DNA of 64,000 nucleotides from Candidatus Methylomirabilota bacterium. Lineage in GTDB: Bacteria > Methylomirabilota > Methylomirabilia > Rokubacteriales > DASRDR01. The notes under the pieces were generated by a model. That model saw nothing but the letters and a program-made list of their open reading frames with translations, ran no database searches and had not been told where the DNA came from. Positions 24,986 through 37,297 of the stretch are shown here, piece by piece. Within the stretch, counting starts at the first letter, position 1, and each line of letters opens with the position of its first letter. Location: contig DASYQW010000033.1 in the NCBI GenBank assembly GCA_036005065.1, positions 21,989 to 85,988 of the forward strand, given 5' to 3'. Position numbers and translations under genes: made by a program.

Positions 24986-25617
24986 CTCCGGAGCAGAGGC
25001 AGCAGGAACGGCCACACGCGCTCGGCGATGACCCGATGCCCGGCGGCGTTCGGGTGGATGCCGTCGGGCTGATTGAGCTGCGGGTCGACGGCGACGCCGT
25101 CCAGCAGGAACGGCATGAAGGCCACCTGGGCCTGCCGGGCCACGTCGCCGAAGGCCCGGGTGAAGGCCTGGGTATAGTCGGCGCCATAGTTCGGCGGGAG
25201 CCGCATCCCGCAGAGGAGGACCCGCGCCCCGCCGGCCGCGAGCCGCGCGACGATGTCGGCGAGGTTCTGACGCATGGCCGCGACGTCCTGGCCCCGGAGG
25301 CCGTCGTTGGCGCCCAGCGCCACGATCGCGATCTCCGGCCGGCTCCGCAACACCCAGTCGACCCGCCGCCGCCCCCCGGCCGTCGTATCGCCGCTCACGC
25401 CCGCGTTCACCACGCGGTAGGGGTAGCCGTCCCGGTCGAGGCGCGCCTGGAGGCGCGCCGGCCAGGCCTCCCCCTGCGCCACGCCCAGTCCCGCCGTGAG
25501 GCTGTCTCCCAGGACGACGATGACGCGGGGCTCGGCTCCGGCCGGCGACACCGGCCAGCCCCCCGCCACGAGGGCGGCCGCGGCGAGGACGAGGAGGGCG
25601 CGGCGAAACCGTGGCAC
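24982..25617 (-). CDS. tesA: GDSL-family arylesterase/thioesterase I (TesA-like), signal peptide
   Basis: GDSLTAG motif and signal peptide. It is divergent from the ybbA/ybbP-like genes, as in E. coli tesA-ybbAP. It starts with GTG. Confidence 0.85.
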   Translation of the reverse strand: MPRFRRALLVLAAAALVAGGWPVSPAGAEPRVIVVLGDSLTAGLGVAQGEAWPARLQARLDRDGYPYRVVNAGVSGDTTAGGRRRVDWVLRSRPEIAIVALGANDGLRGQDVAAMRQNLADIVARLAAGGARVLLCGMRLPPNYGADYTQAFTRAFGDVARQAQVAFMPFLLDGVAVDPQLNQPDGIHPNAAGHRVIAERVWPFLLPLLRR

Positions 25618-25639
25618 GCGTCAAGTGTAATATGAGGCC

Positions 25640-26317
25640 GTGATCGCGATTCGCGACCTGGTGATGCGGCTGCCGAGCGGCGCCGGCCTCGTGACGATCC
25701 TCGACGGCGTCACGCTCGACGTCGCGTCGCGCGAGTTCCTGGCGGTGACGGGGCCGTCGGGCAGCGGGAAGTCGACGCTGCTCGGCCTCATCGCCGGGCT
25801 CGATCGGCCCACCGCCGGCTCGATCCGCGTGGACGGGCTCGAGCTGGCACGCCTCGACGAGGACGCGCTGGCCCGGCTGCGCCGGGACAAGATCGGGTAT
25901 CTCTTCCAGGCCTTCCACCTGATCCCGACGCTGACGGCGCTCGAGAACGTGGCCGTGCCCCTCGAGCTCGCGGGGGCACCGGATCCCCTCGGCCAGGCCC
26001 GCGCCCTGCTCGCCGACGTCGGCCTGGCCGACCGCGTGGCGCACTACCCCGCCCAGCTCTCGGGGGGCGAGCAACAGCGGGTGGCCCTCGCGCGTGCCTT
26101 CGCCAATCGCCCCGCGCTCCTCCTGGCCGACGAGCCGACCGGCAACCTCGACTCGGCCACCGGGTCGCAGGTCATCGAGCTCCTCCTGGCCTGGAACCGG
26201 GAGCGCGGCAGCACGCTCGTGCTCGTCACCCACGACCCGGCCCTCAGCCGGAACGCCGACCGCGTGATCGAGCTGCGCGACGGGCGGGTGGTCGGCGAGA
26301 CCGCGCTGGCGCCGTGA
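25640..26317 (+). CDS. ybbA: ABC transporter ATP-binding protein (YbbA/LolD/MacB-ATPase-like)
   Basis: Walker A GPSGSGKST, signature LSGGEQQRV, Walker B LLLADEPTGNLD. It starts with GTG after a GAGG RBS. Confidence 0.85.
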   Translation: MIAIRDLVMRLPSGAGLVTILDGVTLDVASREFLAVTGPSGSGKSTLLGLIAGLDRPTAGSIRVDGLELARLDEDALARLRRDKIGYLFQAFHLIPTLTALENVAVPLELAGAPDPLGQARALLADVGLADRVAHYPAQLSGGEQQRVALARAFANRPALLLADEPTGNLDSATGSQVIELLLAWNRERGSTLVLVTHDPALSRNADRVIELRDGRVVGETALAP

Positions 26318-28833
26318 GGGCGTTTGCCTTCCGCATGGCCTGGCGCGAGACCCGGGCGGCCTCGCGCCACGTCCTGATCTTCTTCGCCTGCATCGCGTTC
26401 GGCGTCGGCGCGCTGGTCGGTGTGGCGAGCTTCGCGGCGAGCCTCGACCGGACGCTCGCCCACGAGGCCAAGGCGCTCCTGGGCGGCGACCTCGAGCTGC
26501 GCGGAGCGCGGCCGCTCGATCCGCCCACCGAAGCCCTCCTGGGTCGGCTGGCCGCGCAGGGGGCCACCCTGACGCACGTCCGGGAGCTGGTCGGGATGGC
26601 GCGCGATCCCGCCGGGGGCGGCACCGTGCTCGTCGAGCTCAAGTCGGTGGAGGATGCCTACCCCCTCTACGGCCGGCTCGAGACGGTTCCCGCCCGGCCC
26701 CTGGCGGAGCTTCTCGGCGACGACGGCGCGCTCGTCCAGGAAGCCCTGCTCACGCGGCTCGGTCGCGCCGTCGGCGACACCATGGTCATCGGCATGGGGC
26801 GCTTCCGGATCACGGGCATTCTCCGGAAGGAGCCGGACCGCGCGGCCGGCCTGTTCACCCTCGGCCCGCGAGTCCTCATCGCCGCCCGCGCGCTCCCGCG
26901 AACCGGCCTCGTCCAGTTCGGGAGCCGCATCCGCTACCGGGCTCTCCTGCGGTTGCCCGACCGACTCGAGCCGGCCGCGATCCGCGCGGCCCTCACCCGC
27001 GAGGTGCCCGACCCCGCCGTCCGCATCGCGACCTTCGACGAGGCCCAGCCCGGCCTCCGGCGATTCTTCTCCCAGCTCACCACCTACCTGGGCCTGGTCG
27101 GGCTCGTGAGCCTCCTCGTCGGCGGCATCGGCGTCGCCGCCAGCGTGCGGACGTTCATCGCGCAGAAGCGCTTCACGCTCGCCGTCCTCAAGTGCCTGGG
27201 CGCCAGCTCGCGCACGCTCCTCACGGCGTATCTCGGCCAGGCGCTGGCGCTGGGCCTCCTGGGGAGCCTGGCCGGCGCCGCGCTCGGGGTCGGCGTGCAG
27301 GCGCTCCTCGTCCCGCTCCTGGCCGGCTTCGTCCCCTTCGAGATCCAGGCGCGCCTCGAGCCCTGGGCGATCGTCCGCGGGCTGGCGATGGGCCTCTCGG
27401 TGACGCTCCTTTCCGCGCTGTGGCCGCTCGGCGAGATCCGCGCGATCCCCCCGGCGCTCATCCTCCGCTATCCGGTCGACCCGAGCGGACCGCGGGGGAG
27501 GCGCCCCTGGGGGGCCGCGCTGGTCGTCCTCGGCGGCCTCGGCGCCCTCGCCCTCTGGCAGGCCGGGTCGCCGAAGGTCGGCGCCATCTTCGTCGGCGCG
27601 ACCGCCGCCGCGCTGGTGGCTCTGGCCGGAACGGCCCGCGGGCTGACAGCCCTGGCGCGGCGCCTGCCACGGCTTCCGGACCTCGCCTGGCGCCACGGGC
27701 TGGCGAGCCTCCATCGGCCCGGAGGACAGACGGCCGGCGTGATCGTCTCCCTCGGCGTCGGCGTCATGCTCATCACGACGGTTGCGCTCCTGGAGCGGAG
27801 CATGAGCCGCCACATCGACCACGAGCGCCGCCGCGAGACGCCGTCCTTCTTCTTCGTCGACATCCAGCCGGACCAGGCGAATGCCTTCGTGCGGACGGTC
27901 CAGGCGGCCAGCGGGGGAGCCGTGCGGCCGGCCCTGACCCCGGTGGTCCGCGGGCGGCTGATCGCCATCGACGGGCGGCCGATCGTGCGCGAGCAGGTCG
28001 AGGGACGTGACCGCGCCTGGTACTTCACCCGGGAGTACGTGCTCACGTTCGCGGCCACCCCGCCCCCGGCCAACGTCCTGACCCGGGGGCGCTGGTGGAC
28101 CGCGGCGGAAGCCGCCGAGCGGCCGCGCATCTCCCTCGAGGAGGAAGCGGCCGGGACCTTCGGTGTGGACGTCGGTGGGACGCTGACCTTCGACATCCAG
28201 GGCGTGCCGATCGAGGCTCAGGTGATGAGCCTGCGGAAGGTCGACTGGCAGAGCCTGTCGGCCAACTTCTTCGTGATCTTCTCGCCGGGCGCGCTGGAGG
28301 GGGCGCCGCTCAGCTACATCGCCACCGCCCGGGTGCCCCCGGCGGCCGAGATGCCCACGCAGGACGCGGTCGTCCGCGCGTTCCCCAACGTGACGGCCGT
28401 CCCGGTCCGGGACATCCTCGAGCGGGTCGGCGGGGTGATGGCCGAGATCGGGGTGGCGATCCGCGTCATCGCGCTCTTCGTCATCGGGGCGGGGCTCACC
28501 GTCATGGCCAGCGCGCTGACCGCCAGTCGGTACCAGCGCCTGCGCGAGTCCGTCCTGCTCCGTACGCTGGGCGCCACCCGGACCGTCGTCGCGCGCGCCT
28601 TCGCCGTGGAGTACGCCTGTCTGGGCGCCGCCGCCGGCGTCGGCGGCACGCTGCTGGGGGCGCTGCTGGCCTGGATCGTCCTCCGGTTTCTCCTGGACGT
28701 GCCGTGGACGTTCGAGCCCGGAGCCCTCGCCCTCGGCCTCACGCTGCCGATCGCCCTCGCGCTGGCGGTCGGCTTCCTGGGGACGTTCCGGCTCCTGGGC
28801 CAGAAGCCGCTCCCCGTCCTCCGCCAGGAATAG
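26314..28833 (+). CDS. ybbP: ABC transporter permease, FtsX/MacB-like with duplicated periplasmic/permease modules (YbbP-like)
   Basis: 839-aa product with two FtsX-like 4-TM modules. The GTG start overlaps the ybbA TGA (GTGA). Confidence 0.8.
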   Translation: MRAFAFRMAWRETRAASRHVLIFFACIAFGVGALVGVASFAASLDRTLAHEAKALLGGDLELRGARPLDPPTEALLGRLAAQGATLTHVRELVGMARDPAGGGTVLVELKSVEDAYPLYGRLETVPARPLAELLGDDGALVQEALLTRLGRAVGDTMVIGMGRFRITGILRKEPDRAAGLFTLGPRVLIAARALPRTGLVQFGSRIRYRALLRLPDRLEPAAIRAALTREVPDPAVRIATFDEAQPGLRRFFSQLTTYLGLVGLVSLLVGGIGVAASVRTFIAQKRFTLAVLKCLGASSRTLLTAYLGQALALGLLGSLAGAALGVGVQALLVPLLAGFVPFEIQARLEPWAIVRGLAMGLSVTLLSALWPLGEIRAIPPALILRYPVDPSGPRGRRPWGAALVVLGGLGALALWQAGSPKVGAIFVGATAAALVALAGTARGLTALARRLPRLPDLAWRHGLASLHRPGGQTAGVIVSLGVGVMLITTVALLERSMSRHIDHERRRETPSFFFVDIQPDQANAFVRTVQAASGGAVRPALTPVVRGRLIAIDGRPIVREQVEGRDRAWYFTREYVLTFAATPPPANVLTRGRWWTAAEAAERPRISLEEEAAGTFGVDVGGTLTFDIQGVPIEAQVMSLRKVDWQSLSANFFVIFSPGALEGAPLSYIATARVPPAAEMPTQDAVVRAFPNVTAVPVRDILERVGGVMAEIGVAIRVIALFVIGAGLTVMASALTASRYQRLRESVLLRTLGATRTVVARAFAVEYACLGAAAGVGGTLLGALLAWIVLRFLLDVPWTFEPGALALGLTLPIALALAVGFLGTFRLLGQKPLPVLRQE

Positions 28834-28909
28834 CGCCGCCCGCCGGGGACGTCGGGCCCCCCGGGATTCGCCCGCGGCCTGGAGCGGCCGGCGGGTATAC
28901 ACTGGCCGC

Positions 28910-29278
28910 ATGGGCTTCCTGGTGCGGGTCCTCGTCAACGCGCTCGCCATCTACCTCGCGGCCGCCGTGGTGCCCGGGATCGAGATCCGCAGCCCCCTGG
29001 TCGCCCTCGGAGCGGGCCTCGTGCTCGGCCTCGTCAACGCGGTCATCCGTCCCATCCTGCTGATCCTGACCCTCCCGTTCATGCTGGTGACGCTGGGCCT
29101 CTTCCTGTTCGTCCTGAATGCCTTCTGCCTTTGGCTCACCTCGGTGCTGGTCAAAGGCTTCGAGGTGCATGGCTTCTGGGCCGCGCTCTTCGGCGCCCTG
29201 CTGGTGAGCGTGGTGAGCTGGCTCCTGACCACCTTCGTGAGCGACCGCGGCCAGATCGTCGTCATCCGGCGCAGCTGA
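28910..29278 (+). CDS. Small membrane protein, phage-holin-4_2/DUF360 (YvlD-like) family
   Basis: 122-aa product with four predicted TM helices. Residues VNALAIYLAAAVVPGIEI...LVALGAGLVLGLVNAVIRPIL are typical of DUF360. Confidence 0.7.
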   Translation: MGFLVRVLVNALAIYLAAAVVPGIEIRSPLVALGAGLVLGLVNAVIRPILLILTLPFMLVTLGLFLFVLNAFCLWLTSVLVKGFEVHGFWAALFGALLVSVVSWLLTTFVSDRGQIVVIRRS

Positions 29279-29294
29279 TCCGGCGCCGGCTCCG

Positions 29295-29450
29295 TCACGG
29301 GACCCGGGCCGCGGCCGGTGACACCGGAATCGGCTCGAGGGGGTAGCCGCGCTCGCGCCAGGCGTGGAAGCCTCCCAGCAGCGGCCGGACCCGGTCGATC
29401 CCGCGCCGCCGGAGAATCAGCGCCATCCTGGCGCTGGAGGCTTCGTTGGG
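29295..29450 (-). other. In-frame continuation of the rhodanese domain downstream of the TGA (PNEASSARMALILRRRGIDRVRPLLGGFHAWRERGYPLEP...)
   Basis: It contains the characteristic rhodanese C-terminal GG..AW...G.P motif. It would be read only after Sec insertion, stop-codon readthrough or correction of a sequencing error. Confidence 0.5.
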
Positions 29451-30257
29451 TCAGGTGCAGTAGAGCACGATCTCTCGATCGCGCGGGATCTCGTGATGGC
29501 GCACCGAGAGCTCCTCGGTCGTCATGTTGAGAGCGCCGGGAATCCGCACCGGCTCGGCCTCGACGTCGAGCGAGTGGCGCAGGTCGACGACGAGGAGTCC
29601 CTCCCCGGCCTCGAGCCGAGCCCGGAGCTCATCCGGGGTGATCCGGGCGATCCGCAGCCGTCGCAGGAAGCGCTGGCGCGCGACGTACTTCCAGCTCACG
29701 TAGACACCCAGGGCGACGACGACGAGCGCCACCACGCCCGTGCCCATGCCCGCGGCGTAGCCCGCTACCCGCTCGAGCTGGTCCGCGAAGACGTAGCCGA
29801 GCCCGACGAAGACCCCGGCCCACAGGAGACCGCCCAGACCGGTGAACGCGAGGAAGCTCGCGAGGCCCATCCCGACGATCCCGGCCAGGGGCGGCGCCGC
29901 CGTGCTCAGGCCCGGCACGAACTTGGCGACCAGCAGCGAGGGCGCGCCATACTGGGCGAAGGTCTCCTGGGTGCGGCGGACGCACGAGTCGGGCTCGAGC
30001 GAGATCCGGCACAGCAACGTCAGGACCGCGCCTCCGCGAAGGCGTCCCATCAGGTACCAGGCCGCGTCGCTCACGAGCGACCCCAGAACGGCGACTCCCA
30101 GCGTCGCGCCGAGACTGAGCTTCCCGGCTCCCGCCAGCGCTCCGGCGGCCAGCAGAATGGGAACGGCCGGGATCGGGAGCCCGATCTGCTCCGCCAGTAC
30201 CCAGCCGAACACCACCGCATAGCCGTGCCGGACCAGGAACTCGAGCAACCCGGCCAC
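29451..30257 (-). CDS. DedA-family membrane protein fused to a rhodanese domain. The ORF terminates at a TGA two codons after the rhodanese catalytic Cys (possible recoding or pseudogene)
   Basis: DedA/SNARE-associated TM core, then rhodanese ...LVVDLRHSLDVEAEPVRIPGALNM...EIVLYCT-TGA. The GTG start follows a GGGGAGG RBS. The in-frame continuation 29295..29450 encodes the rest of the rhodanese fold. Confidence 0.65.
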   Translation of the reverse strand: MAGLLEFLVRHGYAVVFGWVLAEQIGLPIPAVPILLAAGALAGAGKLSLGATLGVAVLGSLVSDAAWYLMGRLRGGAVLTLLCRISLEPDSCVRRTQETFAQYGAPSLLVAKFVPGLSTAAPPLAGIVGMGLASFLAFTGLGGLLWAGVFVGLGYVFADQLERVAGYAAGMGTGVVALVVVALGVYVSWKYVARQRFLRRLRIARITPDELRARLEAGEGLLVVDLRHSLDVEAEPVRIPGALNMTTEELSVRHHEIPRDREIVLYCT

Positions 30258-30354
30258 TCGAACCTCCCCGCGCCATATAGATGCGCCGGGCGCGCCGGGG
30301 GGTGCATGCTCGCCATCCGACGAGTCTCGCGGCCGTCGACCCCCGGGAGGTATG

Positions 30355-30900
30355 ATGGCCGCGATGCTCGTCGCCCACGTCGCCATCACCACGGCCGCCG
30401 ACTACCTGATCCGCCGGGAGCCGCACCGCCATGCCCACATCGAACGGCTGGCCGAGCTGCGCGGACGCGGCGTGCTCATCGCCGGAGGACCCACGCCGGA
30501 CGGGCGCACGGCCGAGCTTTTCTACCGGCTCCGGCGTCCCACCGAGCTGGCGCCCCTGATCGAAGAGGATCCCTACTATACCGGCGGCGCGTGGACGGCC
30601 TACGCCTCGCGGAGCTTCTCCCAGTTCGTCGAGCCGTGGGAGGCGCCGTCCATCGTGCTGGACGGGTCCCGGAAGGCGACGATCGTCGAGGGGCCGGCCG
30701 AGGATTCCAGCATGGCGCAGATTGCGCTGGTGGAGCTCCGGGGCGCCGCGCGACTCGTCCTTGGCGGGTTGTTCGATGAGCGCGCGACGCTGGCGGTCAT
30801 GCGCTCGGCGGACGGAGCGGAGGCCGCCCGGTGGCTCGCCGAGACGGGCTTCTGGACGCCCGATCGGCTCGCGGCCCGCGCGTGGCTCCACGTCCTCTGA
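30355..30900 (+). CDS. Tandem YciI-like domain protein
   Basis: Internal duplication: LAELRGRGVLIAGGPTPDG / LVELRGAARLVLGGLFDER. A GGGAGG RBS precedes ATGATG; either ATG (30352 or 30355) could be the start. Confidence 0.65.
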   Translation: MAAMLVAHVAITTAADYLIRREPHRHAHIERLAELRGRGVLIAGGPTPDGRTAELFYRLRRPTELAPLIEEDPYYTGGAWTAYASRSFSQFVEPWEAPSIVLDGSRKATIVEGPAEDSSMAQIALVELRGAARLVLGGLFDERATLAVMRSADGAEAARWLAETGFWTPDRLAARAWLHVL

Positions 30901-30906
30901 GTTAGA

Positions 30907-30984
30907 TCGGAGGGGGTGTCGGAACACCCCCTCCGAGACCTCCCCCAAGAATCGTTGCGGCGGCAAAGCCGCCGCTCGGAGCGG
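30907..30984 (+). repeat. Copy 1 of the structured intergenic repeat. Structure: 12-bp perfect hairpin tcggagggggtg-tcggaa-caccccctccga, then cctccccc, then gcggcggcaaagccgccgc and ccgctcggagcgg hairpins
   Basis: The first 30 nt are identical and ~85% identical overall to copy 2 at 34751. It lies immediately after the stop of the tandem-YciI gene. Confidence 0.8.
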
Positions 30985-31055
30985 CACATCCGGTGGCGCG
31001 TGGTCACGTATGAGCGCGAGAGCGATGCCCCGCGCATTCTTTCCCGGACGCTGAG

Positions 31056-31943
31056 ATGGTGGCCGGGCCCAACTTCGGGGTGGCGTGCGCGCTGGCGTCC
31101 GCGCTGACCTGGACCTTGATCGGCCTCGTCGGCCGTGCGCTGGCGCCCTACTTCAGCGCGCTCGCCATCAACCTGATCCGCTCCACGCTGGGCGCCGCCA
31201 TGCTGGCTCCGGTCCTCGTCGCCCGGGGCGGCTGGGCACCGCTGTCCAGAGTGTCGGCCGAGGACTGGCTCTACCTGGCGCTCTCCGTCGTCACCGCCTT
31301 CGCCCTGGGGGACACGGCCTTCTTCGCGAGCGCGAGGGCGATCGGCCTCGGGCGGGCCATGACCGTCTCGATGATCCACCCGCTGATCGCCGGCACCCTC
31401 GGCGTCGCCCTCCTCGGCGAGCAGGTCACGGCGGCCGTGGCGGCCGGCGCCGTCGTCACGCTCGGAGGCCTCGTGCTGATCGTGAGCGAGCGCGCGCCGG
31501 TTCTGCCCGAGGCGACGGCGAGCCGGGTCGAAGGCGTCGGCCTCGCCCTGGTGGCCGCGGCCGCCTGGGGCGTCAGCCCCGTCTTGATGAAACCCGCGCT
31601 CCGCGACGTGGATCCCGTCAGCATCCAGGCGGTGCGGCTGCCGCTCGCCGCGCTCGTGCTATGGGCGACCCCGTGGGCGCGCGGGACCGGCCAGCGGATC
31701 CGCCTCCATCTGCGGGCCGCCGGAGCGCTGCTCCTGGCGCTCGGTTTCCTCACGGCCCTGAGCGCGGTCACCTTCGTGGCGGCCCTGAAGTACGCCGGCG
31801 TCACGCTGACGGCCGTCCTGTCGGCGACCTCACCCCTCTTCGCGCTGCCCATCGGCCTCCTCGCCTTCGGGGAGAGGGTGACGTGGCAGGCCGTCGTCGG
31901 CGCCAGCCTTTGCCTGCTGGGGATCGCCCTCCTGAGCCTCTGA
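31056..31943 (+). CDS. EamA/DMT-superfamily transporter (10 TM)
   Basis: 295-aa product with two EamA repeats. Confidence 0.8.
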   Translation: MVAGPNFGVACALASALTWTLIGLVGRALAPYFSALAINLIRSTLGAAMLAPVLVARGGWAPLSRVSAEDWLYLALSVVTAFALGDTAFFASARAIGLGRAMTVSMIHPLIAGTLGVALLGEQVTAAVAAGAVVTLGGLVLIVSERAPVLPEATASRVEGVGLALVAAAAWGVSPVLMKPALRDVDPVSIQAVRLPLAALVLWATPWARGTGQRIRLHLRAAGALLLALGFLTALSAVTFVAALKYAGVTLTAVLSATSPLFALPIGLLAFGERVTWQAVVGASLCLLGIALLSL

Positions 31944-32043
31944 GCAGGCTCGCCGTGGGGTAGGAGCCTATCGGATTCACCGCGCGCAGCGTGAAATCGC
32001 TACGCGTATGGCGGTCCGCTCCGAGCAGCGGCTTTGCGATAAT

Positions 32044-32457
32044 TCAGCCGGCGCGGCGGAAGGCGACGGCCTGGCAGGCGGCGACGACCGTGCCGGCGTC
32101 GTCCGTCACCGTCATCACGTAGAAACCGGCTCGCCGGCCCTGGCGCTGCTCCCGGGCCTCGGCCACCAGCCGGGCACCGGGGCGGGCCGCCGCCAGGTAC
32201 TGGATGGTCACGCTCAGGGCCACGGCCGGCTCGCCGTGGGAATTGCAGGCGCCGCTGAAGGCGTAGTCCGCGAGCGAGAAGATCGCGCCCCCGTGCGGAT
32301 CGCCCTGGAAGTTGACCATGTCCGGGCCGAGGCGCAAGGCGGCCCGGCAGTAGCCGGGGGTGAGGTCGAGGAGCTCGATCCCGAGCCGCCCGGCGAAGGG
32401 ATCCCGACCGACCTGCTCCCGCACCGACTCGGATCCCGGGGTCGCCGGACCGGTCAT
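32044..32457 (-). CDS. PaaI-family hotdog-fold thioesterase
   Basis: 137-aa product with hotdog core ...GGAIFSLADYAFSGACNSHGEPAVALSVTIQYLAAARPGARLVAEA. Confidence 0.8.
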   Translation of the reverse strand: MTGPATPGSESVREQVGRDPFAGRLGIELLDLTPGYCRAALRLGPDMVNFQGDPHGGAIFSLADYAFSGACNSHGEPAVALSVTIQYLAAARPGARLVAEAREQRQGRRAGFYVMTVTDDAGTVVAACQAVAFRRAG

Positions 32458-32534
32458 GCCGACAGGCCGCCGGCGCTCAGGGCGCCACCAAAGAGGCCGG
32501 CGTGGCTGAAGGCCGGCGCCGGCGGCCTGGGCAT
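32454..32534 (-). CDS. Candidate 26-aa small ORF (MPRPPAPAFSHAGLFGGALSAGGLSA) translationally coupled on both sides
   Basis: Its ATG lies 2 nt after the FAH TGA. A GAGGAG RBS, contributed by the FAH C-terminal codons, sits 5 nt upstream. Its TGA overlaps the PaaI ATG (ATGA). There is no homology evidence. Confidence 0.3.
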   Translation of the reverse strand: MPRPPAPAFSHAGLFGGALSAGGLSA

Positions 32535-32536
32535 CG

Positions 32537-33385
32537 TCACTCCTCCTCGATCGGATTCCGGAGGACCCCGATCCCCGAGATGTCGACCTCGATCGTGTCG
32601 CCCTTGTGCATGAACACCGGCGGGGTGCGCCGGGATCCGACGCCGCCCGGCGTCCCGGTGGCGATCACGTCGCCCGGCGCGAGCGGCGTGAAGCTCGAGA
32701 CGTAGGCGAGGATCACCGGGATCGTGAAGATCAGGAGGTCGGTGGTGGCCCGCTGCATCTCCTGGCCGTTGAGGCGGGTGACCAGGGTGAGCCGGGTGGG
32801 ATCCGGCACCTCGTCGGCGGTCGTGAGCCAGGGGCCGCAGGCGCCGGACGCGCGGAAGTTCTTGCCGGGGGTCCATTGGGAGGTGTGGCGCTGCCAGTCG
32901 CGGATGCTCCCGTCGTTGAAGCAGGCGTAGCCCGCGACGTGACCGAGCGCCTCGGTGGGTGGGATGTGCCACCCGGGCCGGCCGATGACGACGGCCAGCT
33001 CCCCCTCGTAATCGAACTGCTCGGAGACCCGGGGCTTGACCAGGGACCGGTCATGGCCGACCAGGCTCTCGGGGAAGCGGACGAAGATCGAGGGGTGCTC
33101 CGAATCGCTTCGTCCCGTCTCCTGGATGTGGGTCTTGTAGTTGAGGCCGACGCACAGGATCTTGCCGGGGTCGGGAATCGGCGGGACGAGCTCGACCTCG
33201 TCGAGGCCGACGTCGGGCGCCCGCCCGGCGGTGGCCGTCCCGATCTCGCCGAGCGCGCCCGCGGCCAGCACGGCGCGCAGGCTGCCGAAGCGCTCCCCGA
33301 GCCGCCGGCCGGCGTCGATGACGCCGCCGCCGGCGACGACGCCGAAGCTGTCCGTTCTTCGGTCACGGTAGCTGACGAGCTTCAT
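32537..33385 (-). CDS. Fumarylacetoacetate hydrolase (FAH) family protein (2-keto-4-pentenoate hydratase / HpaG-like)
   Basis: 282-aa product MKLVSYRDRR... with FAH-fold motifs (DYEGELAVVIG, GTPGGVG). An AGGAGG RBS precedes the start. Confidence 0.85.
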   Translation of the reverse strand: MKLVSYRDRRTDSFGVVAGGGVIDAGRRLGERFGSLRAVLAAGALGEIGTATAGRAPDVGLDEVELVPPIPDPGKILCVGLNYKTHIQETGRSDSEHPSIFVRFPESLVGHDRSLVKPRVSEQFDYEGELAVVIGRPGWHIPPTEALGHVAGYACFNDGSIRDWQRHTSQWTPGKNFRASGACGPWLTTADEVPDPTRLTLVTRLNGQEMQRATTDLLIFTIPVILAYVSSFTPLAPGDVIATGTPGGVGSRRTPPVFMHKGDTIEVDISGIGVLRNPIEEE

Positions 33386-34136
33386 GGTGAACCTCCTGGC
33401 GCTCGAAGCGGCGATGGAGCGCAAGCGGCCGACTCCGCTTGCGGTAGCGCATGTTCAGGAGCTCGACGAAGAGCGCGAAGGCCATGGCCGAGTAGATGTA
33501 CCCCTTCTCCATGTGGGCGCCCGTCCCCTCGGCCACCAGCATCACCCCGATCAGGAGCAGGAAGGAGAGCGCCAGGATCTTGACGCTCGGGTGACGCTCG
33601 ACGAAGCCGCTGACGGCCCCGACCGACACCAGCATCACGAGCATGGCGACCACCATGGCGGCGATCATGATCGCGATCTCGTCGGCCAGGCCGACCGCGG
33701 TGACGACGGAGTCGAGCGAGAACACGATGTCCAGCACCATGATCTGGACGAGCACCAACGTGAGCACGCCGCCCCCTCCGCCCGCGGACGCCTCCTCGTG
33801 CTCCACCTCCAGCTTGTCGTAGATCTCCCAGGTCGCCTTGGCGATCAGGAAGAGCCCGCCGCCCAGGAGGATGAGGTCGCGCCCGGACACGCGATGCCCC
33901 AGCACCGCGAAGAGCGGGGCCGTCAGGCTCATGACCCACGTGATCCCGAAGAGGAGGAGCACCCGCGTGCCCAGCGCCAGGACGAGCCCGACGCGCCGGG
34001 CCAGCGGCCGCTTCGCCCGCGGCAGCCTGTCGGTGAGGATGGCGATGAAGACGATGTTGTCGATGCCGAGCACGATCTCCATGATGGCGAGCGTCGCGAA
34101 GGCGATGAGGTTGCTGGAGGTCAGCAGGTCGCCCAT
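33363..34136 (-). CDS. TerC-family integral membrane protein
   Basis: 257-aa product with conserved IMEIVLGIDNIVFIAIL and the duplicated DSVVTAVGL TerC motifs. Confidence 0.85.
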   Translation of the reverse strand: MGDLLTSSNLIAFATLAIMEIVLGIDNIVFIAILTDRLPRAKRPLARRVGLVLALGTRVLLLFGITWVMSLTAPLFAVLGHRVSGRDLILLGGGLFLIAKATWEIYDKLEVEHEEASAGGGGGVLTLVLVQIMVLDIVFSLDSVVTAVGLADEIAIMIAAMVVAMLVMLVSVGAVSGFVERHPSVKILALSFLLLIGVMLVAEGTGAHMEKGYIYSAMAFALFVELLNMRYRKRSRPLALHRRFERQEVHHEARQLP

Positions 34137-34182
34137 GCCAGCAGCATAGCGTATGGTACAATGCCGCGGCTACGGAGCCCGG

Positions 34183-34743
34183 ATGGACCCGACGCGACTG
34201 CGCCCCGACGATCTCATCGACACCGCGCGCGATCTGACCCGCCAGTCCTACGCGCCGCGGCCGCCGATCGCCGGTGTCGCCCTCGGCGAGGTGCCCGTCT
34301 TCCGGAGCCCGGACGGACTCTTCGCCGAGATCGCCCGGCTCGACGAGGCGCGCCAGGCCGACGGCTTCCCCGGCTTCTGCCCGGTCCAGTGGAACTGGAG
34401 CCTGCTCGAGCCCGGGGCGGTCAAGGCCTGGCATCTCCATCTCAACCAGGAAGATCTCTGGATCATCCCGCCCGACGCCGCGTTGCTCGTCGGCCTGGTC
34501 GATCTGCGGCGGGCCTCGTCGACCGCCGGCCACACCCAGCGCCTCACCCTCGGCAGCGGGCGCTGCCATCGCCTGCTGATCCCGCGCGGAGTCGCGCACG
34601 GCGTCGCCAACCTGGGGCCGCGCCGGCAGACCATGCTGTACGCGGTCAACCAGTTCTTCACGGCCGACCCCGACGGCACGGACGAGTGGCGGCTCCCCTG
34701 GGACCGCTTCGGCGAGAGCTTCTGGGCGATGAGCAAGGGCTGA
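34183..34743 (+). CDS. Cupin-fold protein, dTDP-4-dehydrorhamnose 3,5-epimerase (RmlC)-like
   Basis: ...FCPVQWNWSLLEPGAVKAWHLHLNQEDLWIIP... The ATG (MDPTR) follows a GGAG RBS; the track ORF begins 30 nt upstream. Confidence 0.55.
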   Translation: MDPTRLRPDDLIDTARDLTRQSYAPRPPIAGVALGEVPVFRSPDGLFAEIARLDEARQADGFPGFCPVQWNWSLLEPGAVKAWHLHLNQEDLWIIPPDAALLVGLVDLRRASSTAGHTQRLTLGSGRCHRLLIPRGVAHGVANLGPRRQTMLYAVNQFFTADPDGTDEWRLPWDRFGESFWAMSKG

Positions 34744-34750
34744 GTTCAGG

Positions 34751-34828
34751 TCGGAGGGGGTGTCGGAACACCCCCTCCGAAGCCTCCCCCGAGGATCGTG
34801 GCGGCGGCAAAGCCACCGCTCGGAGCGG
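34751..34828 (+). repeat. Copy 2 of the structured intergenic repeat
   Basis: It sits between the convergent cupin (+) and cyclase (-) genes. It produces the spurious MSEHPLRSLP ORF seen also at copy 1. Confidence 0.8.
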
Positions 34829-34840
34829 ATGTCGCCCGCC

Positions 34841-37297
34841 TCACGCCCCGACCGCGGCCGACTCGATCGTGGCCGGCAAACGGAACACCCGGACGGGGTG
34901 CTCCACGTTCCGGAGGGGCCGCTCCCCGAGATCCTCGAAGGGAAACTCGCCGTCCAGCCGGCTCCGGGTCACCGGCCCCACCATGATCGTGTCCCCTTCG
35001 CCGAGGGCGGCCAGCCGCGCCGCGACGTTGGTGACCTGACCCGAGGCGGTGTAGGTCCAGCGGGTCCCGGCCCGTCCCTCGATCTTGGTGGCGCCCACGG
35101 TCGCGGTCCCCGAGTTCACCCCGACGTGGAGCGCGATCGGCTCGTCGAGGTCGGCCAGCCTGGCATTGATCTCGCGCGTGCGGCGGAGGATGCCGAGGGC
35201 CGTCTTCACCGCGGCCCGGGCGTGCTGCCGGGGGTCCGGGTCCTGGAAGATCACCATGAGCCCGTCGCCGGCGGTCTCGTTGACGTCGCCTCCGCGCTTG
35301 AGGATCTCGTCCAGGAACGCCCCGAAGTAGCGCTCGATGAGGTCGTTCACCCGCTCGGGATCCAGGCGCTCGGTGAGGCGGGTATACCCGACGATGTCGA
35401 CGAAGAGGACGGAGACGTCGGCCTCGCGCTTGGCGAGCTCCGGGGCCTCGGGCGCCTGCTCGATGAGGTTCTGGACCGTCCGGGGGACGAACTTCGAGAG
35501 GCTCGACCGGATGCTTTCCAGGATCTCCACCCGCCGGAGGGCCGCCTTGAGGTCGACGTTCGCCTGCTCGAGCGCGCTGTACGCCTTGGCGTGCTCGAGC
35601 GCCACCGCGCTCTGGTTCATCAGGAGACGAAGCAGGCGGAGGTCCTCGGTCGTGTAGGCCGCCCCCGACCGCTTCCGGCCCAGTGCGAGGAATCCCGTCA
35701 CGCGCTCCTGGAAGATCACCGGCACGACGAGCTCGGCGCCGAGGGCAGCCAGCTCGGCCAGGCAGGCCTCCCGGACGTCCCTGAGGTCGGGGTCCTCCTC
35801 GAGCTGCTCCCGCGAGACCGGTGTCCGCAACCGCGCCAGACAGGCCGGCAAGGGGGAATCGGCCGGCACCGTGCGGGCCGGGTCCTCGCCGGCCACCAGG
35901 TAGCCCCGCCCCGCCGGGTCGGAGACCAGGAGGTGCTGTCCCACCGGGTGGAGGACCTCGTCGACGGTTCGATGGATCAGGGCCGCGATCCTCTGGAGAT
36001 CGAGCAGCGTCGTCATCAGGTCCGAGGCCCGCTCCAGCGACTGCTGCACGTCGTAGCGCTGCCGGAAGAAGACCCGATCGACCACCTGCTGGGTCCGCAG
36101 GTAGACCGGGTTCAGGAACACGACGACCGCCAGCGCCACGACGACCGCCGGCACGGTCCGCGAAGTCGAGAGGGCCAGCCCCGAGAAGGTGAGGTCGAGC
36201 AGCGCGATGGCGCCGGCATAGGCCGCCACCACCAGCGCCGTCACCACCGAGTAGATCGTGCCGATGCGGAGGACCGCCCAGACGTCGAAGAGGTTGTATC
36301 GGACCATCGCGTAGGCCACGGCCGCCGGGAACAGGAAGTTGAGCTTCCAGATGGCGTCGAGGTAGGGAACGGGCACGCGGAGCAGCGCCTCGACGGCGGT
36401 GCCGAGGACCGGCGGCAGGTACCCGACGGCGAAGCCGGCCGTCAGCACGCGGGCGCGCTGCCGGACGAGCGGCGTGGTCCCGGTCACGCTGGCCCGGGCC
36501 AGGGACAGGACCAGCAGGATCAGCGCGGCGCCCCAGTAGGTGGCGCCCACGCCCGCCACCAGCCCGATCCGGGAGTGGTCCGCGTGCAACCGGACCTGGA
36601 GCAGGAGCGCGACGACGGCCGACAGCCCGTAGGGCAGCCAGACGAGGCCCGGGCCCCGACGGGCGATCGCGGGCCGGCGCGGGAACGTCAGCGCCAGGTG
36701 CATGAAGAGGGCGGGCGAGAATGCCCAGGCGGTGAGAAACAGCAAGGGGAACCGGTAGACGGTGTGGGCGTCCGCGTACAGGATGCTGATGAGGAAGGAG
36801 TCGAGGCAGAAGGCGAAGACGAGCCAGCTCTGCGGGAGCCCCGGCTTGAGATAGAAGACGAGCGCGCCGAGGGCGAGGAAGAGCAGCCCGGCCAGCAGGC
36901 CCTCGACCAGGAAGCGCTTGAAGTCGTGCCGGGTCACGAGCCGGGTCGCGACGTCGGCTTCCACGAGCTGGCCCCGCCGATACAGGATGTAGTGGATGGG
37001 CGTCCCCGGCGGATGGGTCGCGACTTCGCTCTGGATCTCGCGGCCGGATGTCACGAGCCGGCCGTTCACCGCCCGGACCACGTCGAACGGCTGGAGCCCT
37101 CCGCGCTCGGCGCCGCCGATGGCGACCAGGAGGGTCTCCATCACCGAGAAGCCGGCGAAGGGCCGCCCGATCCGCCGATACTGATCCACTCCGGCCTGCG
37201 CGGCGAGGAGCAGCGCCAGTCCGAGCAGCGTGACGAAGATCGAGGTGTCGCGCGCTCGCCTGGCCCGTCCCGGCGGCGTGGCCCGATCCCGCGGCAT
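34841..37297 (-). CDS. Membrane-bound class III adenylate/guanylate cyclase: TM - periplasmic PDZ-like domain - multi-TM - GAF - cyclase (CHD)
   Basis: 818-aa product. It carries the CHD motifs VLFVDIVGYTRLTE ... ETAGDGLMVIF and a GAF-like region upstream. The N-terminal FDVVRAVNGRLVTSGREIQ is PDZ-like. The start was taken at an internal ATG (MPRDRATPP) of the 961-aa ORF. Confidence 0.8.
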   Translation of the reverse strand: MPRDRATPPGRARRARDTSIFVTLLGLALLLAAQAGVDQYRRIGRPFAGFSVMETLLVAIGGAERGGLQPFDVVRAVNGRLVTSGREIQSEVATHPPGTPIHYILYRRGQLVEADVATRLVTRHDFKRFLVEGLLAGLLFLALGALVFYLKPGLPQSWLVFAFCLDSFLISILYADAHTVYRFPLLFLTAWAFSPALFMHLALTFPRRPAIARRGPGLVWLPYGLSAVVALLLQVRLHADHSRIGLVAGVGATYWGAALILLVLSLARASVTGTTPLVRQRARVLTAGFAVGYLPPVLGTAVEALLRVPVPYLDAIWKLNFLFPAAVAYAMVRYNLFDVWAVLRIGTIYSVVTALVVAAYAGAIALLDLTFSGLALSTSRTVPAVVVALAVVVFLNPVYLRTQQVVDRVFFRQRYDVQQSLERASDLMTTLLDLQRIAALIHRTVDEVLHPVGQHLLVSDPAGRGYLVAGEDPARTVPADSPLPACLARLRTPVSREQLEEDPDLRDVREACLAELAALGAELVVPVIFQERVTGFLALGRKRSGAAYTTEDLRLLRLLMNQSAVALEHAKAYSALEQANVDLKAALRRVEILESIRSSLSKFVPRTVQNLIEQAPEAPELAKREADVSVLFVDIVGYTRLTERLDPERVNDLIERYFGAFLDEILKRGGDVNETAGDGLMVIFQDPDPRQHARAAVKTALGILRRTREINARLADLDEPIALHVGVNSGTATVGATKIEGRAGTRWTYTASGQVTNVAARLAALGEGDTIMVGPVTRSRLDGEFPFEDLGERPLRNVEHPVRVFRLPATIESAAVGA

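Follow-up and report, generated by a model that had tools for sequence, protein, structure and literature searches.

A family of hairpin-rich, noncoding repeats abuts stop codons in Rokubacteria genomes and is most likely mobile

The stretch of DNA analyzed here (hereafter, the window; 64,000 nt, 72% G+C) carries similar hairpin-forming sequences between several of its genes, raising the question of whether these are mobile DNA, terminators, or RNA modules of the genes they adjoin. They belong to a noncoding, hairpin-rich family that is dispersed in the genomes of Rokubacteria, an uncultured soil phylum, and that abuts stop codons. The best reading is a MITE/REP-like repeat that lands at stop codons, by way of a putative mobilizing enzyme, and would persist as a hairpin module at the 3' ends of RNAs. 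We put the probability that the family is nonautonomous, noncoding mobile DNA, a MITE/REP-like mosaic proper to Rokuibacteriota/Methylomirabilota, at about 0.68.

Copies in the Window

A repeat search recovers three ∼80-nt copies (682–762, 30904–30984, and 34748–34828; 70–91% identity to the reference) where the original prediction had placed them, and all three also score against a covariance model derived from relatives. The window contains five repeats in total: two long, one shortened, one solo hairpin 1, and one 5'-truncated, minus-strand copy of 76 nt. At least three copies and a possible fragment had been predicted; the copies stand, but the solo hairpin had been missed. The length of ∼80 nt holds for the core, but copies 1 and 2 are ∼132–151 nt, with a conserved ∼60-nt tail following. 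The fragment, described as 22 nt in inverted orientation (32015–32036), is indeed reversed but is part of the 76-nt copy. It had been placed 3' of the EamA gene; its orientation is that of a minus-strand thioesterase gene, not of EamA, and the 76-nt copy begins 6 nt past the TGA (32046–32044) of that gene.

682–684, left flank of copy 1, TCA (minus strand, TGA, overlapping the ABC start as ATGA; read from sequence)
685–816, plus strand, copy 1, long form (covariance model, 69.7 bits; tail against long-form HMM, E=1.8e-16)
685–713, plus strand, copy 1 hairpin 1, variant TGGGAGGGGGCC-TCCAC-GGCCCCCTCCCA
716–724, plus strand, copy 1 C-motif, degenerate, CCCACCCCC
735–753, plus strand, copy 1 hairpin 3, GCGGCGGC-GGA-GCCGCCGC
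750–762, plus strand, copy 1 small hairpin, CCGCT-CGG-AGCGG
763–816, plus strand, copy 1 3' tail, terminating in GTTACTCCGACCGGA
817–819, right flank of copy 1, TCA (TGA stop, minus strand, of the NMT1-domain gene at 817–3369; read from sequence)
23031–23059, plus strand, copy 4, solo hairpin 1, consensus TCGGAGGGGGCC-TCGAC-GGCCCCCTCCGA (pattern search; covariance model, 41 bits)
30897–30901, left flank of copy 2, CTGAG, including the YCII stop codon (read from sequence)
30901–31051, plus strand, copy 2, long form (covariance model, 82.2 bits; RNA fold z = −2.8)
30907–30936, plus strand, copy 2 hairpin 1
30939–30946, plus strand, copy 2 C-motif, CCTCCCCC
30957–30975, plus strand, copy 2 hairpin 3
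30972–30984, plus strand, copy 2 small hairpin
to 31050, plus strand, copy 2 tail, diverged
31051–31055, right flank of copy 2, CTGAG, directly 5' of the EamA ATG (read from sequence)
31962–32037, minus strand, copy 5, 5'-truncated (nhmmer, long-form tail model, E=3.9e-11, model positions 1–76)
34744–34840, plus strand, copy 3, shortened form (covariance model, 73.8 bits)
34751–34780, plus strand, copy 3 hairpin 1
34783–34790, plus strand, copy 3 C-motif
34801–34819, plus strand, copy 3 hairpin 3, one mismatch, GCCACCGC
34816–34828, plus strand, copy 3 small hairpin

Copy 1 is the entire spacer between two minus-strand genes, from the stop of the NMT1-domain gene (TCA, 817–819) to the ATG of an ABC ATPase gene (CAT, 683–685), and is antisense to the pair; the TCA on either side is a candidate target-site duplication. 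Copy 2 lies between the stop of a YCII gene (TGA, 30898–30900) and the start of EamA (ATG, 31056), and loci L060 and L014 also have a matching flank pair at its spacing. Copy 3 is the exact spacer between the convergent stops of a cupin/dTDP-sugar-isomerase-like gene (TGA, 34741–34743) and a GAF-adenylate cyclase gene (TCA, 34841–34843). Copy 4 starts 4 nt past the TAG (23024–23026) of another YCII gene (22680–23026), and its 29-mer is the commonest form in public genomes. Only the loop and 3' arm of hairpin 3, the TCGGAGCGG hairpin, and the long-form tail are retained in copy 5.

Structure of the Unit

The full unit consists, in order, of a 12-bp G+C-rich hairpin (H1) whose stem includes GGAGG:CCTCC, a single-stranded CCTCCCCC motif, an 8-bp hairpin (H3) and, in the long form, the ∼60-nt tail. 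Its consensus is TCGGAGGGGGCC-TCGAC-GGCCCCCTCCGA, 2 nt, CCTCCCCCAGGA, a spacer, and TTGCGCCGGC-AAA-GCCGGCGC-TCGAA, with or without the tail. A 30-nt palindrome occurs exactly twice in the window and a 28-nt 3' module three times, versus 0 in shuffles for either. Two copies do share an identical palindrome, as had been noted, but the pair begins at 30907 and 34751, not at 686 and 30907, and it is also these two that follow a plus-strand stop (ctgagtt).

Both stems are maintained as pairs. When copies were picked by the 5' arm of H3 only, the variable dinucleotide of the 3' arm was complementary in 64 of 65 (CC/GG, 32; GC/GC, 16; CG/CG, 15; CT/AG, 1). Compensatory double changes separate the orthologous pairs L065 and L102 (in both hairpins), L037 and L068, and L072 and L114, and the H1 variant in the window with TG..CA replacing CC..GG is compensated as well. 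Such changes in a palindrome can also arise without selection, via hairpin-templated repair, and this counts against the main reading. There is no conserved reading frame because copy lengths (75–99 nt) differ by non-multiples of 3, and judged by this out-of-frame variation the family is noncoding. Look-alike ORFs, suspected from the start to be spurious, are a by-product of the repeated sequence.

A further intriguing feature, not tied into the main reading, is a mirror-repeat motif capable of forming a triplex. It is quite improbable, in our estimation, that a triplex module (H-DNA or an RNA triple helix), not a plain hairpin, is the functional unit. The purine arm of H1 (5'-GGAGGGGG), its Watson–Crick partner CCCCCTCC, and a mirror copy 2–4 nt further on (5'-CCTCCCCC) would fold into an intramolecular pyrimidine-motif triplex, and the other strand would form a purine-motif triplex. 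In the consensus, the C-motif is an exact mirror, not an inverted repeat, of the H1 3' arm and is in register for a parallel third strand. Arm and motif vary together: GGA+G5 is paired with CCT+C5 in 59 of 72 copies, GGA+G6 with CCT+C6 in five of nine, and G6–7 without A with C7 without T in all four (L052, L081, L087, and L176). Fisher's test on G5/G6 versus C5/C6 (counts 59, 10, 1, and 5) gives p=9e-4 for copies that are not independent, and effectively only three independent subfamily events underlie the pattern. The motif is kept despite extra hairpins between it and H1 (L046, L063, and L070), but solo hairpins and L176 lack it, and the rule is broken in copy 1 (CCCACCCCC), L108, L117, L055, and L106, among others. 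Moreover, a run of seven C+.G-C triples is expected to be unstable at neutral pH, which counts against a triplex, and in such C/G-rich sequence the motif can form imperfect Watson–Crick pairs with the purine arm.

Distribution and Mobility

At least 35 Rokuibacteriota/Methylomirabilota MAGs carry near-identical units, which lie at loci unrelated to one another. A single pattern scan of public genomes returned at least 120 matches, and those listed were almost all from MAGs of this group (∼35 distinct assemblies). The window and fetched loci together hold 90 full-length copies in 892 kb, the fetched loci having been chosen for carrying hairpin 1; the window itself has five copies in 64 kb. The family has a composition of ∼75% G+C. 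Because ∼80 nt are near-identical at unrelated loci, the units were copied rather than having converged. Decay products are present, including 5'-truncated, internally shortened or deleted, solo-hairpin, and mosaic forms with extra inserted hairpins, and such forms are typical of mobile repeats.

Orthologous junctions are filled in some relatives and empty in others. At the YCII/EamA junction, the window has a 151-nt insert and the syntenic metagenome locus L126 is insert-free (TGAcGTG; YCII-TGA-c-GTG-EamA). A second junction is filled in L026, and in L092 the two convergent genes at it overlap. The cupin/cyclase junction has the 97-nt element in the window and L167, a different variant in L176/L177, a 29-nt relic in L168, and an unrelated 44-nt spacer in L173/L174; it is empty (0–1 nt spacer or 4-nt gene overlap) in L169, L178, and two JGI contigs. 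A junction of this type in L175, with another downstream gene, has a 41-nt mini-hairpin spacer. Exact insertion boundaries are unreadable because the empty-site relatives are only 65–82% identical in amino acids. Orthologous copies are retained between species with as little as 50–87% identity in the flanking genes, and their stems are kept by compensatory changes.

The idea of a lineage-specific REP/MITE-like element therefore fared well, given copies in dozens of MAGs, filled and empty junctions, and truncated, deleted, and mosaic variants. The further copies and conserved structure that the original prediction called for were found, and an Rfam search matched no described family at gathering score (best weak match of 29.6 bits versus a gathering score of 52.5).

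Placement Relative to Genes

Copies occupy otherwise zero-length junctions, with ends flush with stop codons or a start codon. A co-oriented stop codon precedes 47 of 77 evaluable copies, and in 39 of the 77 the gap from stop codon to H1 is 0–7 nt (mode of 4). Relative to background (121 tandem, 22 convergent, and 32 divergent junctions), junctions with copies are enriched for convergent and tandem types and depleted for divergent ones (33 tandem, 18 convergent, and 3 divergent; chi-square p=7e-6). Between same-strand genes, 14–19 copies are sense and 14 antisense. One copy is inside a tRNA cluster, after a tRNA gene, with no TA or TNA nearby. Stop-codon usage beside copies does not differ significantly from background (p=0.16).

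The context of the stops is distinctive. TGA stops adjacent to elements are within CTGAG in nine of 15 cases versus 22% in background (p=0.002), and TAG stops are within CTAG in 11 of 17 versus 38% (p=0.025). In 53 of 90 copies, the 10 nt preceding H1 include a TA, versus 9% of random 10-mers, an excess also seen at copies without a co-oriented stop. Some long copies have identical flanks (CTAG/CTAG, five times; CTGAG/CTGAG, three times; TCA/TCA, once). Matching flanks are not universal (TGA...TCA in copy 3; CTGAG...CTAC in L026), and across all copies the two sides share a CT(N)AG word in ten of 26 versus 7.9 expected, which is not significant (permutation p=0.19). Terminal inverted repeats are weak: the left-end (G)TCGGAG has a mirror CTCCGAC at the right end in only four of 84 copies (1.1 expected), and YCCGAC is found there in 12 of 84 (6.7 expected). 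No autonomous partner or transposase was found, and the genes enclosed by paired copies have ordinary roles in metabolism or transport.

We suggest that a transposase acting in trans moves, or formerly moved, the element and that this enzyme cuts palindromic sites with A/T in them, of the CT(N)AG / TNA type. At 72% G+C, such sites would be largely limited to stop codons, and the element would therefore home to gene ends. Insertions would be tolerated because the duplicated target would regenerate the stop.

Role of the Transcribed Hairpins

Once inserted, the element would be transcribed within the 3' UTR or intercistronic RNA, where its stable hairpins may, like REP elements of Escherichia coli, block 3' exonucleases or read-through. 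With H1 starting ∼4 nt past the stop codon, they may modulate termination or the release of ribosomes as well. A factor-independent terminator or a small-RNA module had been offered as an alternative identity; the latter would be one that matches no Rfam family. No hairpin in any copy is followed by a T/U tract, and a terminator scan flags none; therefore, the copies are not canonical terminators, and their occurrence in both orientations between same-strand genes and within a tRNA cluster argues further against that role. The original interpretation is thus upheld for its REP/MITE-like part and not for the canonical terminator.

A tentative possibility is that the element is primarily a cis-acting RNA module of host 3' ends, with placement kept by selection rather than insertion specificity; a mobile origin is compatible with this. 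It could be a terminator lacking a U-tract, a barrier to 3' exonucleases, an insulator separating genes that abut, or a device that modulates the termination or re-initiation of translation. A hairpin 0–7 nt past a stop, as in the 39 copies, falls inside the footprint (mRNA channel) of the terminating ribosome, which favors this role. In E. coli, REPs within ∼15 nt of a stop reportedly stall terminating ribosomes and lower expression. Predicted RNA folds are strong (−78 and −84 kcal/mol; z = −2.8 and −2.3), and the persistence of orthologous copies with compensated stems also fits. So does the bias toward convergent and tandem junctions, a pattern also described for REPs, for which action as RNA elements is presumed (PMC3733652). 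Against a primary cis-acting role, the hairpins have no following T-run, orientation is about equal in same-strand pairs, one copy sits in a tRNA cluster, and many relatives have no spacer at the same junctions, which indicates that the element is dispensable. Near-identity over ∼80 nt at unrelated loci also needs copying rather than convergence.

Comparison with Known Systems

Like SPRITE and other terminator-like repeats and intrinsic terminators, the family places strong G+C hairpins at 3' ends of genes; unlike them, its copies lack a U-tract and are not orientation specific. MIRUs of Mycobacterium are described as repeats between cistrons that overlap, at their ends, the stop and start codons on either side. 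The Rokubacteria units similarly reside in a high-G+C host, in operon junctions abutting an upstream stop and a downstream start (...TGA[element]ATGA... at copy 1; TGA[element]TGAgATG at copy 2), but they form no tandem arrays, have no conserved small ORF given their out-of-frame lengths, occur in either orientation, and are also frequent between convergent genes.

IS5 / PIF-Harbinger-type elements target TNA within CTNAG (PIF, CWCTTAGWG), and IS630-type elements target TA within CTAG. The CTAG, CTGAG, and TCA flanks of long copies and the CT(N)AG-enriched stops resemble these targets. However, neither a transposase gene nor an IS with matching ends was found for the family, two apparent duplication lengths would be required, and several copies have no matching flanks.

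Bacterial MITEs (Correia/NEMIS of Neisseria, RUP of pneumococcus, ERIC, and YPAL) are likewise small, noncoding, and dispersed, with long and internally deleted size classes (155/107 bp in Correia elements; PMC2229807, PMC10969869), TA-containing insertion targets, and filled and empty sites between relatives. They are cotranscribed with neighboring genes and form RNA hairpins (PMC2229807, PMC10969869), as by analogy the Rokubacteria repeats may. Whereas the classical MITEs of bacteria have A+T-rich sequence, clear terminal inverted repeats, and a TA at each end (PMC2229807), this family is G+C-rich and dominated by internal hairpins, has terminal inverted repeats of at best 6–7 nt in a minority of copies, and has no known parent IS.

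REP/BIME sequences of Enterobacteria, Pseudomonas, and others share a G+C-rich palindrome (20–40 nt) in many copies and mosaic combinations, often very near stop codons, and plausibly transcribed as RNA hairpins. REPs lie mostly 3' of ORFs, at junctions of same-direction or convergent genes (PMC3733652), a distribution that this family fits. H1, a 29–30-nt G+C-rich palindrome, could then be a REP unit recognized as ssDNA by a RAYT tyrosine transposase, with composites as BIME-like mosaics. H1 does occur solo (copy 4, L022, and L092) and joined to other hairpins in mosaics, and weak or inconsistent terminal inverted repeats and target duplications are expected with an HUH-type enzyme. Such a system is nevertheless unlikely: no conserved GTAG or CGTC tag lies beside the hairpin, whose flanks are variable; there are few adjacent pairs and no inverted-doublet (REPIN) arrangement; and no RAYT-like gene is present in the small sample of neighborhoods. 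Unlike REP/BIME, a full unit has three parts in a fixed order (H1, C-motif, and H3, with or without tail) over 80–150 nt, and its flanks match (CTAG or CTGAG) in some copies. No paper describing these repeats was found in the literature. The family is apparently undescribed and represents a known kind, the bacterial REP/MITE-like repeats, rather than a new kind of system.

Copies of the Repeat in the Window

The window, in which G+C content is ~72% throughout, carries five copies of the hairpin repeat. Three copies of ~80 nt had been predicted from the sequence, and a repeat search of the window groups the segments at 682–762, 30904–30984, and 34748–34828 as one family. The 30-nt palindrome TCGGAGGGGGTG-TCGGAA-CACCCCCTCCGA occurs exactly twice in the window, at 30907 and 34751, and a 28-nt 3′ module occurs three times at two or fewer mismatches; no occurrence of either is expected by chance. 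The palindrome and its ctgagtt stop context had been ascribed to the first two copies, and are in fact common to those at 30907 and 34751, with the copy at 686 having a variant hairpin. A relaxed hairpin pattern adds a copy not in the original prediction, which lies 4 nt past the TAG of a YCII gene. The 22-nt inverted fragment reported previously is indeed in reverse orientation; it is not a standalone fragment, being part of a 76-nt, 5′-truncated minus-strand copy.

Copies of the repeat family in the window
685–816, plus strand: copy 1, filling the spacer from TCA at 817–819 (stop of an NMT1-domain gene, minus strand) to CAT at 683–685 (ATG of an ABC ATPase gene); antisense to the operon
30901–31051, plus strand: copy 2, between a YCII-like gene (stop at 30898–30900) and an EamA transporter gene (ATG at 31056)
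34744–34840, plus strand: copy 3, occupying all 97 nt that separate the stop of a cupin/dTDP-sugar-isomerase-like gene from that of a convergent GAF-adenylate cyclase gene
23031–23059, plus strand: copy 4, a solo hairpin with a second YCII gene on one side and the gene for an ECF-type sigma factor on the other
31962–32037, minus strand: copy 5, 5′-truncated, between the convergent EamA and thioesterase genes and starting 6 nt past the thioesterase stop

With a covariance model of the family, window copies score 82, 74, 70, and 41 bits. Copies 1 and 2 are long forms, which have an additional 3′ tail that short forms do not have.

Two other features of the window lie outside this set. Between copy 4 and the sigma-factor start (TTG/ATG, 23113/23116) is a strong 12-bp hairpin, GCCGCCCGGTGG-GATACACTT-CCACCGGGCGGC, at 23080–23112. 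It is not part of the repeat family and may be a regulatory or terminator-like structure within the YCII-sigma gene pair. The repeat search also identified two coding stretches, 10103–10999 and 39901–40809, that are 71–81% identical, 29.8 kb apart, and in the same orientation; they look like paralogous genes.

Anatomy and Distribution of the Family

We scanned species-representative genomes (one per species) for TCGGAGGGGG-N7-12-CCCCCTCCGA and obtained at least 120 matches. Nearly all of the matches listed are in metagenome-assembled genomes (MAGs) labelled Candidatus Rokuibacteriota, Rokubacteria, Methylomirabilota, or Methylomirabilia, representing at least ~35 assemblies; the few listed from other taxa, Streptomyces among them, consist of the palindrome alone and lack the remainder of the element. 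Among the listed matches, the commonest hairpin is TCGGAGGGGGCC-TCGAC-GGCCCCCTCCGA, found 29 times and, as its reverse complement, 27 times. Orienting the copies by the loop aligns their flanks into a single conserved unit of 80–150 nt. The unit begins with the first G+C-rich hairpin (H1; 29–30 nt with a 12-bp stem), followed by 2 nt, CCTCCCCCAGGA, a variable spacer of 0–15 nt, the second hairpin (H3), which reads (A)TTGCGCCGGC-RAA-GCCGGCGC, and then TCGAA or TCGGAGCGG. In long forms, found mostly in MAG SMAG_U4595 as well as in the window, the unit continues for ~60 nt more as ...GGACCACC..GGCGGTTCAGC..CACGCGG.GCGCGGTTATG.CGAC...

The original prediction called for a scan for further copies, and many more are present, both in Rokubacteria MAGs and in the flanks of loci fetched from public genomes and metagenomes. 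An nhmmer search found 90 full-length copies in 892 kb consisting of the window and the fetched loci, the latter having been picked for carrying H1; the covariance model also detects extra, unselected copies in the flanks of these loci. Some variants are solo hairpins or mini-hairpins, others have additional hairpins inserted after H1 and before the single-stranded C-rich motif that follows it (C-motif), and one subfamily has the hairpin CGGGGGGGTC...GACCCCCCCG. In one MAG, a 69-nt composite hairpin, CTTCGGAGGGGGGCCACCCAGGCCCCCCCACGCCTTCGGCGTGGAAGCCCGGGTACCCCCCCTTCCGA, is shared at 94% identity by two loci (L104, 1177–1245; L111, 5792–5859), where it adjoins a standard copy and is a further mosaic module.

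The family does not appear to correspond to a described element. At gathering thresholds, the window has 0 hits in Rfam, where a match to a known element had been named as a refuting result; at permissive E-values, the best weak match is that of copy 2 to Scr6106 (29.6 bits against a gathering threshold of 52.5). Our literature search found no published description of this family.

Metagenome contigs encoding relatives of the YCII protein that are 51–71% identical (46 loci, 169 kb) have 0 copies, implying that the family is confined to part of the phylum or that these contigs are from other lineages. In one such metagenome relative (L129, 2527–2722), two copies of an unrelated hairpin repeat, GGTGCCCCGGCT.CGCCGGGGCAC GA.GAGCG..GGGGGTATGGG..., are located past the YCII stop, thus related lineages may own separate repeat families at the same kind of site. 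A scan of viral contigs found 0 matches for the hairpin-3 module, so the element is not evidently phage-borne. Full copies are also present in contigs binned as Acidobacteria, Alphaproteobacteria, and Candidatus Acidoferrum (L037, L014, and L098; also L071). The flanks of L037, from the Acidobacteria bin, are 71–83% identical to those of two Rokubacteria loci (L068 and L008), which suggests that at least this contig is mis-binned.

Conservation of Pairing

RNA folds of two long copies have predicted energies of −78 and −84 kcal/mol (z = −2.8 and −2.3). Counts of paired positions in the first alignment (A1) are inflated twice over, because H1 was fixed by the search pattern, making its invariance uninformative, and because the filter demanded a near-complementary H3. 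The H3 test was therefore rerun with copies picked on the 5′ arm only, and orthologous copies were compared. Positions of H1 left free by the pattern co-vary (CC/GG, GC/GC, TC/GA, and the window's own TG/CA). In the H3 rerun, 64 of 65 copies have a 3′-arm variable dinucleotide that is complementary to the 5′ arm, with four variants represented. Orthologous copies in L065 and L102, whose flanks are ~87% identical, differ by compensated double changes in both hairpins, and such changes also distinguish L037 from L068 and L072 from L114. The structure conservation sought in the original prediction is thus found in H1, in H3, and in orthologous pairs, and together these observations indicate that pairing is maintained. 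Hairpin-templated repair, without selection, could contribute to this pattern.

The kept structure is not that of a canonical factor-independent terminator, one of the functions originally proposed. No hairpin is followed by a T-run, and a terminator scan of 22500–35500 flags no copy; hence the canonical intrinsic terminator was rejected as a candidate, the hairpins being present and the T-tract lacking. In the same 13 kb of the window, there are just two consensus intrinsic-terminator-like sites, no more than in shuffled sequence; canonical U-tract terminators seem rare in this genome. A protein-coding or MIRU-like small ORF was likewise rejected, given the lack of a start codon and the out-of-frame variation in length. 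As had been anticipated, many spurious look-alike ORFs are explained by the repeat family, in which out-of-frame lengths leave no reading frame conserved.

The relationship of the C-motif to H1 raises another reading of the conserved structure. Beginning 2–4 nt past the H1 3′ arm (5′-CCCCCTCC), the C-motif (5′-CCTCCCCC) mirrors that arm and does not complement it. The conserved order runs from the purine arm GGAGGGGG through the loop to the pyrimidine arm CCCCCTCC and then, after 2–4 nt, to a mirrored pyrimidine tract, CCTCCCCC. An intramolecular pyrimidine-motif triplex has its parts in this order, as does an H-DNA mirror repeat in the case of DNA, and the consensus CCCCCTCC-GAnG-CCTCCCCC is, like H-DNA motifs, a homopurine-homopyrimidine mirror repeat with a short spacer. 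Presence of the A/T and length of the G-run and C-run co-vary three ways across three subfamilies: GGA+G5 occurs with CCT+C5 in 59 of 72 copies, GGA+G6 with CCT+C6 in five of nine, and G6–7 without the A pairs with C7 without the T in four of four. However, several copies break the mirror rule, independent subfamily events are few, and long runs of C+.G-C triples are unfavorable at neutral pH. We therefore regard it as unlikely that the order encodes an intramolecular triple helix (an RNA "paperclip" triplex or H-DNA) planted a few nucleotides past stop codons by a mobile element. Triple-helix stabilizers of 3′ ends are known in eukaryotic and viral long noncoding RNAs; if the triplex reading were true, the family would be their bacterial, transposon-spread analogue or, alternatively, a dispersed non-B-DNA signal.

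Placement at Gene Junctions

Locations of copies were evaluated relative to genes approximated by ORF calls based on G+C at third positions, in place of gene prediction. A co-oriented stop codon precedes 47 of 77 evaluable copies, and in 39 the gap from stop to H1 is 0–7 nt, with a mode of 4. In 20 further copies, such as window copy 1, the start codon of a gene on the opposite strand is a few nucleotides from H1. At the far end, 33 copies are met by the stop of a gene on the opposite strand; the gaps cluster at ~0–13 nt in short forms and ~36–63 nt in long forms, the latter corresponding to the length of the tail. These gaps at both sides imply that the element typically spans the entire intergenic spacer. 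Junctions with copies are 33 tandem, 18 convergent, and three divergent, compared with 121, 22, and 32 in the background of the same loci (chi-square P = 7e-6), and within tandem pairs both orientations of the element are approximately equally frequent. One placement involves RNA genes: in two species (L065, 189–503; L102, 1160–1481), a full copy is in a tRNA cluster, 5 nt past tRNA-Ser(tga) and before tRNA-Ser(gct), with no TA or TNA target nearby.

Filled and Empty Orthologous Junctions

Three orthologous junctions were compared with those of relatives that are only 65–82% identical, so insertion boundaries are approximate. Between the YCII and EamA genes, the syntenic metagenome contig L126 reads ...ctccacgtcctcTGAcGTGacg... 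and the window reads ...ctccacgtcctcTGAg[149 nt]cTGAgATGgtg... Similarly, L026 has ~135 nt of element between TGA and CTA where, in L092, two convergent genes overlap around CTAG. The cupin/cyclase junction, occupied by copy 3 in the window, is found in several states.

Content of the cupin/cyclase junction in relatives of the window
L167 (99% identical): identical copy 3
L176 and L177 (79% amino-acid identity): another variant, which has a G-run hairpin and an intact H3 but lacks the C-motif
L168 (82%): 29-nt spacer resembling the left end of the element, CTAGATCCGAGGGGGCG
L175 (81%): 41-nt mini-hairpin spacer; the downstream gene encodes a luciferase-like monooxygenase, not a cyclase
L173 and L174 (81%): unrelated 44-nt spacer
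L169 and L178: 0–1 nt between stops (TAG|CTA, TAAgCTA)
Two JGI metagenome contigs: 1-nt spacer in one and a 4-nt gene overlap in the other

Repeated gain, loss, or turnover at one junction is expected of a mobile element with a site preference. The contig with the identical copy (L167; JGI 3300036863, Ga0376052_0518342) is 943 nt long and encodes a protein 99% identical to that of the window cupin gene; that metagenome sample therefore contains either the window's organism or a strain very close to it.

Target Signature and Ends

Long copies are flanked by identical words at consistent spacing, candidates for the target-site duplications of MITEs, with CTAG/CTAG in five and CTGAG/CTGAG in three (L060, L014, and window copy 2). 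Window copy 1 is flanked by TCA/TCA, and its left TCA shares bases with the start codon to read ATGA on the coding strand, which suggests that the two flanking genes originally overlapped by ATGA. Flanks of window copy 3 and L026 do not match. Over all copies, an identical CT(N)AG word on both sides is not significant in a permutation test, with only the long-form subset matching consistently. Usage of TAG and TGA beside copies does not differ significantly; only the extended context is enriched, with CTGAG at nine of 15 element-adjacent TGA stops (background of 22%; P = 0.002) and CTAG at 11 of 17 TAG stops (38%; P = 0.025). Regardless of context, the 7 nt preceding H1 are rich in A/T. A TA is within 10 nt upstream of H1 in 53 of 90 copies, compared with 9% of random 10-mers, and is also present in 24 of 43 copies not classed as following a co-oriented stop.

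The ends of the element are weakly related. For the left end, (G)TCGGAG, a mirroring CTCCGAC is present at the right end in only four of 84 copies (1.1 expected), and a right-end YCCGAC is present in 12 of 84 (6.7 expected). In a small sample of paired copies, no transposase or parent insertion sequence lies between the members, where ORFs encode amidohydrolases, a peptidase, a binding protein, and ABC ATPases, and no RAYT (Y1 transposase) gene was seen in sampled neighborhoods. A TNA, as in CTNAG, and a TA, as in CTAG, are targets of IS5/PIF-Harbinger-type and IS630-type transposases, which provides a lead for this family. In L090 (2287–2526), two full copies are arranged tail-to-tail between two liv-type ABC ATPase genes, with their hairpin-3 ends 80 nt apart, forming one of few REPIN-like inverted doublets seen.

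Interpretation

Copies in many Rokubacteria MAGs, filled and empty junctions, and decay variants agree with the original prediction of a REP/MITE-like, lineage-specific element. The best-supported reading is that the family is a nonautonomous mobile repeat of the MITE/REP/BIME kind that is specific to Rokubacteria. Under such a model, the element would insert at targets containing a stop codon where genes are tightly packed, or be tolerated at such targets alone, and would then be retained in 3′ UTRs and intercistronic RNA as a module of hairpins. Its hugging of stop codons may reflect targeting, selection for an RNA function, or both. Such a function could lie in blocking exonucleases, in termination without a U-tract, or in influencing ribosome release; REPs of Escherichia coli within 15 nt of stops reportedly affect ribosome release.

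The Rokubacteria/Methylomirabilota, an abundant and uncultured group, have G+C-rich genomes of unusually large size whose noncoding content is, to our knowledge, essentially uncharted. The covariance model of the family provides a lineage marker and possibly a binning marker. The family accounts for many assembly breaks, and the model should also improve annotation of gene ends. The family offers a clear natural example of a repeat filling zero-length gene junctions flush with stop codons. Should the proposed CT(N)AG/TNA targeting be true, extreme base composition would convert a simple target preference into homing to stop codons. If instead the position is selected, the many natural pairs with and without the element could show how a hairpin 4 nt past a stop influences termination, mRNA decay, and gene coupling.

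Comparison with Known Repeat Classes

We place the family in the general MITE/REP kind and in no named family because GTAG/CGTC tags, clear terminal inverted repeats, and A+T-richness are all missing. MIRUs form tandem arrays and contain a conserved small ORF overlapping the stop and start codons on either side, whereas in the window, copy 2 has no start codon at its left end, lengths are not multiples of three, and there are no tandem arrays. Palindromic elements derived from IS200/IS605 always have the same 4–5-nt target at the left end and cause no duplication. In contrast, left flanks in this family are heterogeneous, and CT(N)AG is within 16 nt in only 26 of 85 copies.

Like prokaryotic MITEs, the family is small (less than ~300 bp), noncoding, multicopy, and dispersed, with filled and empty orthologous sites, and it matches the size classes and decay products of MITEs (PMC2229807). 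Classical MITEs, however, have clear terminal inverted repeats and are A+T-rich; this family is not A+T-rich, and its terminal inverted repeats are weakly supported. REPs and REPINs have an unpaired GTAG or CGTC tag at one end (PMC3733652); in this family the tag is absent, with positions −16 to −1 upstream of H1 having only a weak A/T-rich pattern (T-7, A-6, T-3, C-2) and the 3′ side reading GA-nG-CCTCC. Nevertheless, H1 fits the REP palindrome, which is 20–40 nt, imperfect, and high in copy number. REPs are located downstream of ORFs, between same-direction and convergent genes (PMC3733652), and by its 33/18/3 junction types, the family has the same genomic distribution.
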